The translations under genes were made by a program, and so were the position numbers. Of a stretch of DNA of 9,491 nucleotides, positions 1,495 to 7,561 are shown piece after piece (position 1 is the stretch's first letter; each line of letters begins with the position of its first letter). Origin of the DNA: a virus (lineage: Duplodnaviria; Heunggongvirae; Uroviricota; Caudoviricetes). The DNA is taken from IMG/VR virus record IMGVR_UViG_2547132272_000017, positions 1 to 9,491 of that record; one strand, 5' to 3'. The notes beneath the pieces are model-generated. The model had not been told where the DNA came from. It made no database searches and was given only the letters and a program-made list of their open reading frames with translations.

Positions 1495-2381
1495 GCTGCC
1501 ACACCTCCGATATGTGCACGGTAACTTTCCCAACCAAACACCAGGCAGTTACGCCCACCATCAGTAACGCGATCCACAATCCGTTCACCAATGGACTCCT
1601 TAAGTTGGTCAAATGTCAGATTACTAATCAAAATTGTCGGTAAAACGCTTTCGTAACGTGCATTGATGATTTCCTGCAGGATGGTTATCTCTGTTGGCGT
1701 ACCGAACTGCACACCAACCTCATCGATGATGAGCAGGTCCAGCGATACAAAATGGTCAATAACTTCATCTTCAGTGCGTTCAGAATTGTGACGCCAGGTA
1801 TTTTTCACAGCGCGGGTCAGTCGCATGACATCCGTAATTTCGACAGTCGCCAGGTGGTGGCGAATAATATTTTTTGCCATTGATACAGCCAGGTGATTTT
1901 TCCCGGTACCGCAATTGCCAATCATGATCATGCTGGTACCCGCAGCAAGACACTTCTCCCATGAACTGGCATAGCGCCGACAAGCCTCAAGATTTCTCTG
2001 TGCGTCAGCATTCACAGCCTGGTAGTTCTCAAACTCGCAGTCCTGGAAGCGGCGGGCAATACCAGCTCTGTCAAGTAATTCATGAACTTTCAGGATGCGT
2101 AACGCCTCCTGTACCTGATCCAGTTCATTCGCAATGCAGGTCGGGCAACCAGACACCCGTTTGATGGTTTCCCCACGAACATCTGGCCCTTTCAACACCA
2201 GACGTGTGTATTTCCCGTGTTTCTCACACTCAGCAGTTTCCTCGCTTGTCAGCCAGTGTTCACAGCGCCACGGACGCTTCCCGGCACGGGCAAACTGCAT
2301 CTCCTCCTCCAGTTCCGCCCTGCGGTTGAGCAATTGCGCTTTATCGTGTTGTGCGTAGTGTTTTTTTAACTGTTCAAACAT
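1491..2381 (-). CDS. DnaC/IstB-like AAA+ ATPase, putative helicase loader / replication protein
   Basis: Walker A (GNCGTGKNHLA) and Walker B (LLIIDEVG) motifs. Cys-rich N-terminal region (RCEHW, ECEKHG, GCPTC). SD GAGGTGA 7 nt upstream of the ATG at 2381. Stop overlaps the helicase start (ATGA). Confidence 0.8.
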   Translation of the reverse strand: MFEQLKKHYAQHDKAQLLNRRAELEEEMQFARAGKRPWRCEHWLTSEETAECEKHGKYTRLVLKGPDVRGETIKRVSGCPTCIANELDQVQEALRILKVHELLDRAGIARRFQDCEFENYQAVNADAQRNLEACRRYASSWEKCLAAGTSMIMIGNCGTGKNHLAVSMAKNIIRHHLATVEITDVMRLTRAVKNTWRHNSERTEDEVIDHFVSLDLLIIDEVGVQFGTPTEITILQEIINARYESVLPTILISNLTFDQLKESIGERIVDRVTDGGRNCLVFGWESYRAHIGGVAA

Positions 2382-3674: not shown

Positions 3675-3895
3675 ACGGCACCTCCCAGGCGTTTAAACAT
3701 TTTTCCGGACTGAAACGCCACCAGTGGGTAACTGATGGTGTAGTTACGCCCCAGTAATTCACACACGACTTTCTGGCTTTCGGTACTGACCAGGCAAACC
3801 CGCAGAACATGGCCGTTGCTGGTGGCAAACCACTGCCCCACACGGGGGCAACGGTTGTATCGGTGATACAGGGAATTAACGACGCGGCGAATCAT
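3671..3895 (-). CDS. Hypothetical protein (74 aa; alternative start at 3910 would give 79 aa)
   Basis: ATG at 3895 overlaps the stop of the upstream 220-aa gene (ATGA), indicating translational coupling. No recognisable domain. Confidence 0.45.
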   Translation of the reverse strand: MIRRVVNSLYHRYNRCPRVGQWFATSNGHVLRVCLVSTESQKVVCELLGRNYTISYPLVAFQSGKMFKRLGGAV

Positions 3896-4554
3896 GGGCG
3901 CACTTCCCATTGATTACGGCGGAAAGCAGTGTGATTCAGGCTGGTTTCAGCCTCATGGAATGCTTCAATGCAGCTCTCGTAGTACCGCATTGTGCGCAGA
4001 CTTAACCCAAGCTGAAGCATCATCAGACCATCAAGGGTGATGTAATAACCACGCAGGGAATCGCCATACACGTGGTAAGTACCCGGAATGAAATTACGGG
4101 AGAAGAATTCACGTGAGCAGTTCAGATACTCGATTTTGTCGACGATGTTCTGGTGCATGCGCTTAAAGTGGCAGGCAACATGCAGGGAGAAAATAACAGC
4201 TTTGCCGTTGACGACTTCGATTTTCAGGTATGGGGAAGTTGGGACTGTAGCCATGATGGCAGCCTCCGTATGCAATGGATAACTTCCACCACCGGAAACG
4301 CCAATTTCACTGGTGGTGAACTGAACGGGGTTGGCGTAACCGGCGCATACGGAAACCGGCGCATCTTTCGATGCCCCCGCCCAGCCCACCATAATCTGGA
4401 TGTGAGCAAATGCGGACGATAAAAAAGACGCTGGCGCGTCGTATATCGCCGTATGCAATTCCAGGACGCCAATCCCGGCACCCGCTTTATAAGGTGCCAG
4501 AACAGTGTAACGTCCCGAAATTGCAGAATCAATATTTAGGCTTGAAACATTCAT
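3892..4554 (-). CDS. Hypothetical protein (220 aa)
   Basis: Longest ORF in this interval, on the same strand as the flanking operon; ORFs in other frames are shorter shadows. No clear SD upstream of the ATG at 4554 and no recognised motif. Confidence 0.55.
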   Translation of the reverse strand: MNVSSLNIDSAISGRYTVLAPYKAGAGIGVLELHTAIYDAPASFLSSAFAHIQIMVGWAGASKDAPVSVCAGYANPVQFTTSEIGVSGGGSYPLHTEAAIMATVPTSPYLKIEVVNGKAVIFSLHVACHFKRMHQNIVDKIEYLNCSREFFSRNFIPGTYHVYGDSLRGYYITLDGLMMLQLGLSLRTMRYYESCIEAFHEAETSLNHTAFRRNQWEVRP

Positions 4555-4631: not shown

Positions 4632-4657
4632 AGCCGGGTTACTACCCGGCTTTTTTT
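4632..4657 (+). terminator. Intrinsic terminator-type hairpin (8-bp GC-rich stem AGCCGGGT/ACCCGGCT, 4-nt loop) followed by T7 on the + strand
   Basis: Read directly: stem 4632-4639 / 4644-4651, T-run 4651-4657. Canonical for + strand transcription; on the minus strand it sits immediately after the Rha stop codon, preceded by an A-tract with no U-tract after it. Confidence 0.6.
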
Positions 4658-5388
4658 CACCGCTGCCAACCAATAACCTGAAATAACCCCATTTTCGGGT
4701 GATACCAGCGAGTCCCTCGCGGTTCTGCTTCCTCCATAACCCGATAAAAAGCAGCCATAAACGGTTCCACAGCAACAATTGCGCGACGTGACAACAATCC
4801 GTCCGGCGTCATGAACTCATGGGTGTCTGTAGGAATTTGATAGGCGTTCACCAGATTGCGGCATTTATCATCTGACAAACCGGTTTTTGCTTTCAGTTGG
4901 CGATATCCGGCATAGCCCTCACGAATGGTGCCCTTTTTGATTTGCTCAACTGTTTCGGCAACATGGCTGACTTTTTCTTCCACCTGAGTGATCCGTTTCT
5001 GCTGGCGAACAGCTTCAAGAGCCATCGCTGCAACCATTTCGATTTCGCTCATTGGCTTACGGATCTGTTCTTCCAGTTCGCGCCAGCGATCTACCAGGCG
5101 AGCAGTGAATTCAGGACAGAGCTGTGCGACGACAATGATGCTGTCGCGCTTACCTTGTTCTCCTTCAAACAGGTAATGCTCATATTGAACTTTAAAACCT
5201 AAGTTATTGATTCTTTCGGAAACCTCAATTTGAGGAGACCGGACAACGCCACCTTTGGCTAATGTTTCAATAGTGCGTTTCACATTGTCATGACGTTTAC
5301 CCACCAGCTCTGCGATTTCAACGCTGGTCATGGATACTTTGTCGTTAAAAATTGCAGCGTTCATTGTTGCCTCTTTACGAAAAACCAT
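4657..5388 (-). CDS. rha: Rha-family phage regulatory protein
   Basis: N-terminal signature SMTSVEIAELVGKRHDNVKRTIETL is typical of the Rha domain. Two candidate in-frame starts, ATG 5388 (SD AGAGG) and ATG 5364 (SD AAAGAGG); the longer is annotated. Confidence 0.8.
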   Translation of the reverse strand: MVFRKEATMNAAIFNDKVSMTSVEIAELVGKRHDNVKRTIETLAKGGVVRSPQIEVSERINNLGFKVQYEHYLFEGEQGKRDSIIVVAQLCPEFTARLVDRWRELEEQIRKPMSEIEMVAAMALEAVRQQKRITQVEEKVSHVAETVEQIKKGTIREGYAGYRQLKAKTGLSDDKCRNLVNAYQIPTDTHEFMTPDGLLSRRAIVAVEPFMAAFYRVMEEAEPRGTRWYHPKMGLFQVIGWQR

Positions 5389-5433
5389 GATTAACCTCTA
5401 GCTTTCCCCGTCTTTTCCGCACTTCTTGTACGG

Positions 5434-5442
5434 TGATATTAT
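5434..5442 (+). promoter_or_regulatory. Extended -10-like element TGaTATTAT, candidate promoter for the + strand gene at 5536
   Basis: Sequence TGATATTAT sits about 95 nt upstream of the ATG at 5536. The -35 is weak (tttccg). It lies in the 147-bp divergent spacer between the Rha start and the + strand gene. Confidence 0.3.
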
Positions 5443-5535
5443 TCAGTGCCGGATGCTTACCCGTGTCCGGCGCACGACCACACGTAGCCGCGTGTTGGTC
5501 TCCATTTTCAATTCAGCTCTCAATGGAGGATAAAA

Positions 5536-5781
5536 ATGTCAAATACCCAACATCTAAAAGCGGCGGATCCCGTTTTACGCCTCAATGCACTTGAAACGGT
5601 TGTTCGGGCGATGCTGTCGAGCATGACACCCGAGCAAATAAACAAAGCGCGATTGATTGCTACTCGTGGTGCCCAATTAGCAGCCCTAGATCCATTGCTC
5701 ACTCCTGCGAATCGCGAAGATGTAGAGCACATTCAGGGGATGGTTGATTATTTATTCGCCCATATTCCTGATCAGATTTGA
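5536..5781 (+). CDS. Hypothetical protein (81 aa), convergent with cro, inside the rightward early region
   Basis: Strong SD GGAGGA 5 nt before the ATG at 5536. Protein-like composition (MSNTQHLKAADPVLRLNALETVVRAML...). A hairpin plus T-rich tract lies downstream. The antisense ORF 5520..5732 has biased Ser/Ala/Arg content typical of a shadow frame. Confidence 0.55.
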   Translation: MSNTQHLKAADPVLRLNALETVVRAMLSSMTPEQINKARLIATRGAQLAALDPLLTPANREDVEHIQGMVDYLFAHIPDQI

Positions 5782-5813
5782 TTCTTTGAACCATAATTTC
5801 AGCGATACGAATG

Positions 5814-5844
5814 GCCGCCGCTTCGAGCCTGGCGGCTTCTTTAT
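5814..5844 (+). terminator. Hairpin (GCCGCC / GGCGGC stem, 11-nt loop) followed by TTCTTTAT, between convergent genes
   Basis: Stem 5814-5819 / 5831-5836 read directly, T-rich tract 5837-5844. Lies 33 nt after the + gene stop and 27 nt after the cro stop on the other strand. Confidence 0.4.
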
Positions 5845-5862
5845 CTGCATAAGAGCTACCCA

Positions 5863-6108
5863 TCACTTCTCGTCCTCTGTGTGCGCTAAGCTTGGGTGTG
5901 GAAAAAGCTCTGGTAGGTCTGGACGAAATTCATACGCTTGGATCTTTCCGTCGACAGCTGCAACCAATAACGGCACAAATTCTGGTGAAATCTTGTTCTT
6001 GCAGTTCAACCAATCGCAGACTGTTGACTGGGCCTTTCCGCATCGCTTGGCTAAGGCTTGCTGACTTCCAAGAATCTCAATAGCTTTCTCTATGGCTTTA
6101 TGTTTCAT
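5863..6108 (-). CDS. cro: Cro-like HTH regulator (YdaS-type)
   Basis: Divergent from the cI-like gene across the operator region. Pattern AIEKAIEILGSQQALAKRCGKAQSTVCDWL...EFRPD matches the YdaS/Cro-like HTH family. Start set at ATG 6108 (MKHKAIEK...) with SD AGGAGA; the ORF track's longer start lacks an RBS. Confidence 0.75.
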   Translation of the reverse strand: MKHKAIEKAIEILGSQQALAKRCGKAQSTVCDWLNCKNKISPEFVPLLVAAVDGKIQAYEFRPDLPELFPHPSLAHTEDEK

Positions 6109-6227
6109 AATCGCATCTCCTATTGAACGCATAATAACAACAGGAAAAGCGATATTCAACGTTAAACCTAGAACATTTATCGGAAAGCCGATAGACTAGC
6201 CAGGATAGAGAGGGGAGGAAAATCGCA
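6109..6227. promoter_or_regulatory. Divergent control region (OR analogue) between cro and cI, with operator-like sites
   Basis: 119-bp spacer between the divergent HTH genes. Contains the palindrome TATCGGAAAGCCGATA (6178-6193) and weaker related copies at 6109-6124 and 6139-6154 (core ATCG-N6-CGAT). Confidence 0.7.
6131..6159 (-). promoter_or_regulatory. PR-like sigma70 promoter for cro (-35 TTGAAT, 17-bp spacer, -10 TATTAT, minus strand)
   Basis: Minus-strand reading: -35 is the complement of 6154-6159, -10 the complement of 6131-6136. This leaves a leader of about 16 nt carrying the cro SD. Confidence 0.5.
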
Positions 6228-6920
6228 ATGACATTTTCAGAACGACTTGATTTAGCTATGCGCAACGCAAAATTTACGCAAGGTAGGCTGGCCAAAGAAG
6301 TGGGTATGGCTCAGTCCAGTGTCAATCAACTACTTAACAAAGCCAACGGTTCCAGAAAAACAGTCGAAATAGCAAAAGTTTTGGGCGTTAACCCGGAATG
6401 GCTCGCATCGGGTGTTGGCCCAATGGAAATCGTGACCTCTGCAGACTCACACCAAATACGTAACATTTCTGAAGATTGGGTTACTGATTCGTATGTCGTG
6501 GATGTTTTAGACATCAGATATAGTTGCGGACCTGGTAGTTATAACTCTGATTTTCCTGACATTGTCAGATCTATAGCGATAGAACCAGGATACGCATCAA
6601 GAGTTTTTGGCGGCAGGCCAGCATCAGCAATCAAAGCAATAAACGCCCACGGCGACAGTATGAAAGGCACAATAGACCCTGAAGACTTGGTATTTGTAGA
6701 TGTATCAGTTCGCACATTTAATGGTGATGGTATATACGCCTTTACATACTCTGGAACATCGCACATCAAAAGACTTCAAAAAATCAAAGATACTCTAACG
6801 GTGATATCTGACAACCCAGCTTACAAGGATTGGGCTATCGAACCGGAAGACTTCGAACAACTTCACATTGACGGAAAAGTAATTGTCAGTTGGCCCATGA
6901 CACTACACCGTTTTGCATAA
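6228..6920 (+). CDS. cI: CI-like prophage repressor: N-terminal HTH plus C-terminal LexA/S24-type autopeptidase
   Basis: HTH (FTQGRLAKEVGMAQSSVNQLL); S24 motifs GDSM with a Lys about 38 residues downstream (HIKRL); possible Ala-Gly-type cleavage region (LASGVG). SD GGAGG 10 nt upstream of the ATG. Confidence 0.9.
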   Translation: MTFSERLDLAMRNAKFTQGRLAKEVGMAQSSVNQLLNKANGSRKTVEIAKVLGVNPEWLASGVGPMEIVTSADSHQIRNISEDWVTDSYVVDVLDIRYSCGPGSYNSDFPDIVRSIAIEPGYASRVFGGRPASAIKAINAHGDSMKGTIDPEDLVFVDVSVRTFNGDGIYAFTYSGTSHIKRLQKIKDTLTVISDNPAYKDWAIEPEDFEQLHIDGKVIVSWPMTLHRFA

Positions 6921-7063: not shown

Positions 7064-7561
7064 ATGTCATCGTATATGGGGTTACCAACAAATCAGCACG
7101 ATGCTCTTGAGAATATTCAACTCTTAGTAGGGGCTGGTGCACTACTGTATAGCAGCAATAATCCTGAGTTAATTGAACTTGCCAGCTCCATCCTGGCTGT
7201 AACTCAAAAATACAGCCTCACCGCGTCGCGTTTATGCAAACAAAATTTAGCTATTAATTCCCAGAATCGGATTCGCACCCAACGCGAAGCCTGCGGCTTA
7301 ACAACCGCCGAACTCGCCAGGCTGCTCGATCTCGATGAAGAAATTATCATCCAGTGGGAGAGCGGAGAGTATGAACCAACTATCAGTATGCTTATCCCAC
7401 TGGCAAATATTCTTGGCTGCGATCCGATGTGGCTGTTAACTGGCGAAGTTACTCCTCCGGAGCAACCAAAAAGTGAGGAGCAGCAACACCATGACGCATC
7501 TCAACAAGTTTGCTCCTTATCTCGCGAAGCTCTTCTACGGAAGAACCAATACCAATGGTGA
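7064..7561 (+). CDS. XRE-family HTH protein with an uncharacterised N-terminal region (166 aa); first gene of the leftward operon
   Basis: SD GAGGA 8 nt before the ATG at 7064. HTH_XRE signature in the C-terminal half (IRTQREACGLTTAELARLLDLDEEIIIQWESGEYEPTISMLIPLANILG). No Arg-rich N-type motif. Confidence 0.7.
   Translation: MSSYMGLPTNQHDALENIQLLVGAGALLYSSNNPELIELASSILAVTQKYSLTASRLCKQNLAINSQNRIRTQREACGLTTAELARLLDLDEEIIIQWESGEYEPTISMLIPLANILGCDPMWLLTGEVTPPEQPKSEEQQHHDASQQVCSLSREALLRKNQYQW

Follow-up and report, generated by a model that had tools for sequence, protein, structure and literature searches.

A backward-facing small-protein cassette between cro and rha of a lambdoid Escherichia coli prophage, and the structured leader that it shares with unrelated cassettes

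The window analyzed here is the whole 9,491-nucleotide (nt) stretch of the IMG/VR virus record IMGVR_UViG_2547132272_000017; it represents the immunity and early region of a lambdoid Escherichia coli prophage and is 99.5% identical to E. coli strain WAT. Between the stop codon of its cro-like gene and the start of rha there are 474 bases, and an open reading frame (ORF) of 81 amino acid residues (aa) is located there on the strand opposite to the early-right operon. Is this ORF a gene, what would control it, and what does its orientation against PR imply? A first-pass annotation, made from the letters alone, had described a separately signalled small gene with a strong Shine-Dalgarno (SD) sequence GGAGGA, an extended -10-like element upstream, and a hairpin with a T-rich tail between it and the convergent cro; all of these signals were found in place (Table 1).

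With a probability of about 0.72, the locus is read here as an autonomous moron cassette that lies backwards in the PR operon between cro and rha, is controlled by its leader and is expressed in the lysogen. The gene itself is not new, being already annotated as a hypothetical moron, and its layout is of a known kind. The new part is a portable, structured, SD-masking leader that is common to unrelated backward-facing small-protein cassettes; this leader outweighs the gene, which alone would be an ordinary hypothetical moron.

The 81-aa gene, its protein and its slot

The window has 75 ORFs that reach 40 aa, this being one of them, and the listed signals were individually not above chance (two terminator-like sites against 1.8 expected, by consensus scan and shuffles). 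It was because of the comparison with other sequences, not of single signals, that the feature was judged real. When 5.8 billion proteins were searched, the family consisted of three clusters only, with identities of 99, 77 and 75%, and all three allele clusters sit between a cro-type gene and rha, beside several different immunity alleles. The allele differences fell at codon positions 1, 2 and 3 in the proportions 9/13/23, 13/13/26 and 5/5/23, the third position taking 23 of 45, 26 of 52 and 23 of 33. Seven remote relatives of 79-82 aa (E 9e-25 to 2e-5) were obtained with HMMER and the allele alignment from the full set of 1.84 billion representative proteins. All seven were traced, and every one adjoins the repressor and cro genes of a prophage; L363 is on the PR side, and L260, L262, L364/L365 and L366 are on the PL side. 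In all of the six loci where flanking genes were called, these run on the opposite strand. Judging from this conservation, the ORF is a genuine protein-coding gene, and the third-position bias, together with the conserved promoter, leader and terminator stem, bears out the description of a separately signalled gene lying antisense between cro and rha.

Two ORFs overlap the gene on the minus strand. The one of 70 aa, which had been named as the rival translated frame, was ruled out: it is interrupted in other alleles (Table 1) and has no family matches. The other, of 54/55 aa, is open in all alleles; its substitutions fall mostly at codon position 2 and are non-synonymous, its own alleles are its sole homologues among the 5.8 billion proteins, it is absent from the PGAP annotation, and it is probably not a gene. 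The allele changes in the terminator are also mostly non-synonymous in the overlapping minus-strand frame. The terminator hairpin was computed at -14.7 kcal/mol for the window; for L010, the most diverged allele, the value is -15.0 kcal/mol, and the stem is kept there although 7 of 11 loop bases differ. Its reverse complement lacks a U-tail, so that PR transcription should pass through.

The AlphaFold2 model of the 81-aa protein (predicted local distance difference test score 82.9) has helices at 12-28, 32-50 and 57-75, and a three-helix bundle is predicted. The protein is also predicted to be soluble, with a grand average of hydropathy (GRAVY) of -0.04, an isoelectric point of 5.8, a maximum 19-residue Kyte-Doolittle score of 0.85 and no hydrophobic segment. 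The earlier remark that it holds no recognizable motif stands, given that no significant match came from Pfam, NCBIfam or PADLOC, or from the PDB sequence and fold searches; the sole PHROG match was marginal (phrog_35718, E 0.0027 over 22 residues) and is to a function-unknown PHROG. A peptide pattern from the family alignment, scanned over genome contigs, found no relative, and the three matches of a viral-contig protein scan were false positives within an 829-aa virion protein. A BssS- or IraP-like identity was rejected: BLASTP gave no alignment with the bssS-family gene described below, IraP (8gkv) was matched at E 0.31-0.43, and there was no fold match. As a guess, the protein may be a small modulator acting on some protein of the host or phage, e.g., an exclusion, defence or counter-defence factor.

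When the window was compared with a sister prophage bearing bssS (L002), homology was found over 4663-5379 (89%) and 5863-6300 (96%), and all between was replaced. In the sister prophages rha is 89% and cro/cI 96% identical, and the homology ends precisely where rha starts and cro stops. Block 5380-5862, being swapped between these prophages, therefore acts as a moron cassette, in agreement with the moron-type layout first proposed. It is replaced between homologous phages, as morons are, and of the promoter and terminator that a moron brings with it, an extended -10 and a terminator-like hairpin are present and conserved, with no -35 in the scan. Because a bssS-family gene fills the same slot in sister prophages, the cro-rha junction is, on the sequences compared, a moron insertion hotspot. 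The gene in L002 (3185-3436, + strand; 83 aa) has the same orientation and a different short leader; it matches NCBIfam BssS at E 1.6e-5, under the curated cut-off.

The leader between the -10 element and the start codon

The first-pass annotation, whose gene signals were borne out, had passed over the region between the -10 element and the ATG, which is predicted to form a structured leader that hides the SD. When 5446-5545 was folded as RNA, the + strand gave -38.1 kcal/mol (z = -4.7), and none of 200 shuffles folded as stably. Three hairpins were predicted, of which hairpins 1 and 3 were retained by RNAalifold on a 36-sequence leader alignment. In hairpin 1, 92% of cells are paired, U.G and G.U pairs are possible on the + strand only, and an A-U pair becomes G-C in L363. 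In hairpin 2, AU occupies pair 35-51 in 21 sequences, UA in 11, GC in one and GU in one, and compensatory variants change ACACG/CGUGU to ACAUG/CAUGU; other leaders have unrelated stems at this position (CUCCAC/GUGGAG, AUCGCCGCG/UGUGGCGAU and AUCACCACA/UGUGGUGAU). In hairpin 3, 95.8% of cells are paired and the loop sequence is variable; pair 59-83, which adjoins the SD core, is never broken, being AU in 27 sequences, UA in eight and GC in one. Diverged relatives form this hairpin with the stems CUCCGU/ACGGAG, CUCCUU/AAGGAG, CCUUCU/AGAAGG and CCUUAC/GUAAGG.

Moreover, a second leader class was found in which both hairpin 2 (CUCCAC/GUGGAG) and hairpin 3 (CUCCU/AGGAG) are different. The leaders of the remote 81-aa homologues have all three hairpins, again with different stems, and in the short-leader relatives (L262, L264 and L366) the SD is still under a hairpin. 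The leader is thus conserved and structured with covariation in the alignments, and the SD is sequestered in the predicted folds.

The hairpins are inverted repeats and so can form on either strand, and the site equals that of lambda nutR/tR1; they might therefore act on the minus strand within the PR transcript, as a nut or put site, an RNase III site or a terminator, or the true gene might be one of the two minus-strand ORFs. The same orientation to the host operon on the PL and PR sides would suit such a role. It is nevertheless highly improbable. The fold of the minus strand does not surpass shuffles (z = -1.8, the + strand value being -4.7). The U.G and G.U pairs of hairpins 1 and 2 turn into A-C mismatches there, and neither hairpin is followed by a U-run. 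Conservation includes the + strand SD and stops exactly at the + strand ATG, no Rfam family matches, the 70-aa ORF has a stop in other alleles, and the 54-aa ORF is without homologues and position-2-biased.

The start of the transcript is predicted at ~5446-5450, at the foot of hairpin 1. Homology among leaders begins at (G/A)CCGGAU, 5-8 nt after varied -10-like hexamers, and does so in no fewer than five upstream contexts that are unrelated to one another; the alternative sites include TTGAGA-17-GATAAT, which is near-consensus, TAAACT, TAAAAT, TGgTAATAT and TGaTATCAT. The homology spans the predicted transcript start to the ATG, and the conserved unit is therefore the 5' untranslated region (UTR), not the promoter or the gene. 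An inverted repeat, CCAC(C/T)TCAGGC..GGTGG, is conserved in the promoter region of the 81-aa family and runs into the -10 (GGTGGTATTAT). It lies at ~175-215 of L259, ~1410-1440 of L260 and ~2930-2960 of L366, is degenerate in the window at 5420-5442 (CACTTCTTGTACGGTGATATTAT), and could be an operator for some regulator.

Several points weigh against a leader-controlled, autonomous cassette. The main leader alignment, in which 87% of cells pair under the three-hairpin model against 31-45% with the partners slid, was gathered by patterns fixing part of the leader, which inflates its apparent conservation. Hairpin 1 is almost without covariation, its pairs being mostly invariant in the main set, and its conservation could come partly from recent recombinational spread among related E. 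coli prophages. Hairpin 2 is badly paired in one common variant (O104-type). No -35 was recognized, and the consensus scan gave no full -35/-10 promoter on the + strand. Given that the main set is pattern-gathered and hairpin 1 nearly invariant in it, the strongest structural evidence is that from the independently found remote homologues.

Hairpin 3 alone gave -6.4 kcal/mol at 37 C; between 25 and 42 C the GGAG core was predicted to be unpaired with a probability of 0.04-0.30, and its first three bases with one of 0.04-0.09. An RNA thermometer was rejected on these values, and the modelled accessibility argues for constitutive attenuation or a trans-acting opener.

Distribution and cargo of the leader

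Within the promoter and leader (5433-5535), 2-4 of 103 positions differ among alleles, against 45-52 of 246 in the ORF. Phage phiP27 and ~100 E. coli genomes carry the same leader, 93-98% identical, ahead of another gene, of 75 aa, the identity ending at the ATG. By blastn, the leader had matches in 2987 of the 5426 complete E. coli genomes, at up to seven places in a genome; in 953 of these genomes at least 80% of the query was covered. It also matched 81 phage records, all of them Escherichia, Shigella or Shiga toxin (Stx) phages. It is accordingly an unannotated RNA element with matches in roughly half of the complete E. coli genomes; its occurrences include O157, O104, the Stx phages and a relic in K-12 Qin. 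A search of genome contigs with the 17-mer GTGTCCGGCGCACGACC found chance sites only, in high-GC genomes; these loci (L136-L255) were disregarded, and the range seen is Escherichia and Shigella.

Two pattern scans of IMG/VR yielded ~200 leader loci. The cargo ORFs behind the leader (57-101 aa) fell into at least 15 families, among which neither BLASTP nor profile-profile (HHalign) comparison showed a relationship, and the SD and ATG were conserved in every intact cassette. Those cargo families that matched a PHROG matched function-unknown PHROGs in every case; one family barely reached the Pfam GhoS gathering score (21.2 against 21 bits) and another is a zinc ribbon. A helix motif that seemed by eye to be shared among the families had no support from BLASTP or hhalign (probability below 1%).

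The GhoS score might hint at an addiction module of the toxin-antitoxin kind, in which the primary mRNA, translationally inert through its hidden SD, would need processing as in the type I systems hok, tisB and zorO, and the early-operon transcript or an unseen small RNA (sRNA) would serve as antitoxin. An SD-sequestering leader with stable 5' hairpins does resemble type I toxin mRNAs, and complementary transcription is inherent in the layout. The cargo families are very diverse, however, PADLOC gave no match, and the 81-aa protein has the GRAVY and 19-residue scores of a soluble protein. No dedicated antisense promoter or terminator appeared in the scan, and no Rfam sRNA in 5300-5950, so we regard such a module as very unlikely.

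The orientation was analyzed in 96 non-redundant same-leader cassettes with 1.5 kb of flank on each side. The longest flanking ORF was opposite on both sides in 79 of the 96, and in none were both on the cassette's own strand; the leader cassettes lie antisense in PL- or PR-side early operons. A second same-leader cassette was observed on the PL side, left of the cI-adjacent helix-turn-helix (HTH) gene, at 7199-7426 (- strand) of L006 and 5305-5532 (- strand) of L002, its cargo being a 75-aa protein of phrog_20080. L006 holds this cassette together with a PR-side 81-aa cassette (in L002 the PR-side slot is taken by the bssS-family gene), so two leader copies can face each other across the immunity region. 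In a Rac-like prophage (L260), a match to the Rfam sRNA STnc100 (1126-1333, - strand; 54.8 bits) adjoins an 81-aa family cassette in the interval between KilR and the repressor.

Cassettes are numerous in the long 'untranslated' DNA that separates ydfC-type genes from dicF in Qin-like prophages. In the Qin prophage of K-12 MG1655 (L362, NC_000913.3), an unannotated leader relic was observed in the ydfC-dicF interval at ~2060-2160 (- strand). It consists of a TAAACT -10-like site, hairpin 1, the CUCCAC/GUGGAG hairpin and an anti-SD, CUCCUU; the SD and cargo are replaced by the 3' end of ydfC on the other strand, and the RNA, if transcribed, would be antisense to ydfC. In Stx/933W-like phages (L016, L272, L283 and L308; e.g., PA2, at ~11.6 kb of the record), hairpin 1 and part of hairpin 2, without an SD, are found in an unannotated gap of the early-left region. 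DicF was rejected as a regulator of the leader (duplex of -27.9 kcal/mol against a shuffle mean of -31.9 kcal/mol).

Loci of the K-12 Qin type, which keep the promoter-like site, hairpins 1 and 2 and the anti-SD without an SD or ORF, also speak for a unit acting mainly as RNA, like lambda PRE/paQ or OOP, whose promoter would fire against PR and whose antisense RNA would interfere with cro and early-right expression, the ORF being secondary. In this window read-through would also be sense into cI, the cassette does point to cro, in the same orientation as cI, and the terminator is only moderate, its T-tail being interrupted. Against this stand the evolution of the ORF as a protein and its remote protein homologues, the SD and ATG conserved in intact cassettes, and the conserved terminator that precedes cro. 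Moreover, four of the six relatives with called flanks (L260, L262, L364/L365 and L366) are on the PL side and convergent to the repressor gene, and a PRE-like role therefore cannot be general. A role as RNA alone is thus considered unlikely, and the protein-coding cassette is preferred.

With Rfam release 15, 5300-5950 gave only chance snoRNA matches (E above 2), and the leaders in six other loci gave no match, while the DicF positive control scored 77 bits. The leader and cassettes were absent from the literature as searched: neither is mentioned in PMC10448788, PMC5069750 or PMC4104026, and the anti-sRNAs of Tree et al. are located at PR' and are unrelated. Tentatively, and with more doubt than confidence, the leader may be a new, uncatalogued cis-regulatory RNA that places hypervariable prophage small proteins under one post-transcriptional switch. 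The switch could be an RNA-binding factor of phage or host, or pairing or RNase III cleavage with the complementary early transcript. If so, production of the proteins would be confined to a defined state of the prophage, and the cargo would amount to an arsenal of exchangeable factors for exclusion, defence or counter-defence; should the cargo prove to act by excluding phages or modulating the host, a new class of hotspot would be defined by the leader. The leader marks a family of backward-facing small-protein cassettes in lambdoid early operons, offers a sequence handle for finding dark-matter prophage proteins, and accounts for conserved 'intergenic' DNA beside dicF. It also suggests a control model made of a 5' stabilizer, a hidden SD and opposition to PL/PR.

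Proposed expression, neighbouring genes and known systems

For the autonomous cassette, we infer promoter activity, lysogen-specific expression and the roles of the hairpins and the protein as follows. A sigma-70 promoter relying on the extended -10 would start the mRNA at the foot of hairpin 1. Stem-loops at the 5' end have an established effect on RNase E/RppH-dependent decay, and the 5'-terminal stem-loop may shield this mRNA from 5'-end-dependent decay. Pairing of the anti-SD of hairpin 3 with the SD region would keep translation low or conditional. The mRNA would encode the putatively soluble three-helix protein and end at the intrinsic terminator before the convergent cro, by which cro and the operator OR would be spared read-through. 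Because the cassette opposes PR, it should be on when PR is repressed, and it is from this layout that both lysogen expression and collision with PR are deduced. In the lysogen, where PR is shut by cI, the cassette would be expressed; after induction, PR transcription running head-on into it, together with the complementary early RNA, would switch it off.

The early-right operon on the minus strand comprises rha, then an ash/Rha-type gene, replication genes and a DnaB helicase; the cro-like gene starts at 6108 in the PGAP annotation. Inside ORF 3892-4554 (- strand), named 'ash family protein' by Pfam and PGAP, Rfam matches to a C4 antisense RNA (80.5 bits) and to the Hfq-binding RNA isrK (61.8 bits) were observed, which overlap the Phage_ASH domain match (aa 16-108, ~nt 4231-4509). 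The pair looks like the anti-repressor control module of P1 c4/ant or Gifsy-1 IsrK/AnrP type, and the N-terminal part of the annotated ash family protein may really be RNA genes. In the sister prophage L002, a ProQ/FinO-family gene (1709-2101, - strand) lies within the early-right operon; as pure speculation, its protein is a candidate RNA-binding partner for structured leaders or sense-antisense pairs.

Table 1. Coordinates of the cassette, its parts and its neighbours in the window
Feature	Position	Strand	Remarks
81-aa protein gene, WP_000072550.1	5536-5781	+	ATG start; RefSeq/PGAP 'hypothetical protein' (L001, strain WAT)
Whole cassette (promoter, leader, ORF, terminator)	5380-5862	+	Gap from rha start to cro stop
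Extended -10, TGaTATTAT (TG 5434-5435, 'a', TATTAT 5437-5442)	5434-5442	+	Sequence; invariant in all alleles
Structured leader, about 87-90 nt	5446-5535	+	Three predicted hairpins
Hairpin 1, core CCGGAUGC-UUACCC-GUGUCCGG	5446-5473	+	Predicted very 5' end of mRNA
Hairpin 2, GACCACACG-uagc-CGCGUGUUGGUC	5476-5500	+	Minimum free energy fold
Hairpin 3	5500-5530	+	Anti-SD CUCCAUU (5500-5506) with AAUGGAG overlapping the SD (predicted)
SD, GGAGGA	5525-5530	+	5 nt ahead of ATG
Intrinsic-terminator-like hairpin, GGCCGCC...GGCGGCU, and T-rich tail	5813-5846	+	Stem 5813-5837, tail UCUUUAUCU
70-aa ORF	5520-5732	-	In-frame stop in L005 and L008 alleles; rejected as gene
54/55-aa ORF	5699-5866	-	Abuts cro stop (TGATG); overlaps 3' end of 81-aa gene
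cro-like gene	5863-6159	-	Pfam YdaS_toxin 1.3e-14 and HTH; convergent with cassette
cI-like S24/LexA-family repressor	6228-6920	+	Pfam Peptidase_S24 7.5e-17 and HTH; same strand as cassette
Rha-family regulator (rha)	4657-5388	-	Pfam Phage_pRha 5.5e-10; next early-right operon gene
C4 antisense RNA and isrK sites in ORF 3892-4554	4309-4396 and 4421-4497	-	Rfam

Among known systems, the dicBF operon of Qin with DicF (PMC5069750) is similar in place, many leader cassettes sharing its ydfC-dicF interval. The cassettes are on the opposite strand, however, are not DicF and show no special complementarity to it. The SD-sequestering leaders of hok, tisB and zorO, RNA thermometers and the alternative structures of lambda cIII likewise combine an anti-SD with stable 5' hairpins, whereas here the cargo does not encode a hydrophobic toxin, is not a heat-shock gene, and the predicted SD accessibility hardly changes from 25 to 42 C. 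Anti-CRISPR/aca loci and prophage defence hotspots also hold exchangeable small genes behind a shared control sequence. Here the shared element is an RNA leader, in place of a promoter/operator with a conserved regulator gene, and no cargo has a known defence or anti-defence function.

In lambda, the OOP RNA is non-coding and 77 nt long, and PRE depends on CII and serves the synthesis of cI. The OOP and PRE/paQ promoters also lie just downstream of cro/cII and oppose PR, and the transcript ends at an intrinsic terminator; the present cassette differs in its conserved 81-aa frame with SD and ATG, in that no CII-type site was seen, and in having PL-side relatives. Morons, as defined by Juhala and Hendrix, are extra genes with their own promoter and terminator, e.g., lambda bor and lom and HK97 gene 15. 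This definition is also quoted in PMC4104026. The cassette appears analogous to them in being an extra gene that is variably present between similar phages and expected to be on in the repressed prophage. It lies, however, within the early operon by cro instead of in the late region or near PR', and the moron concept does not include a conserved structured 5' UTR module shared by unrelated morons, as is found here.

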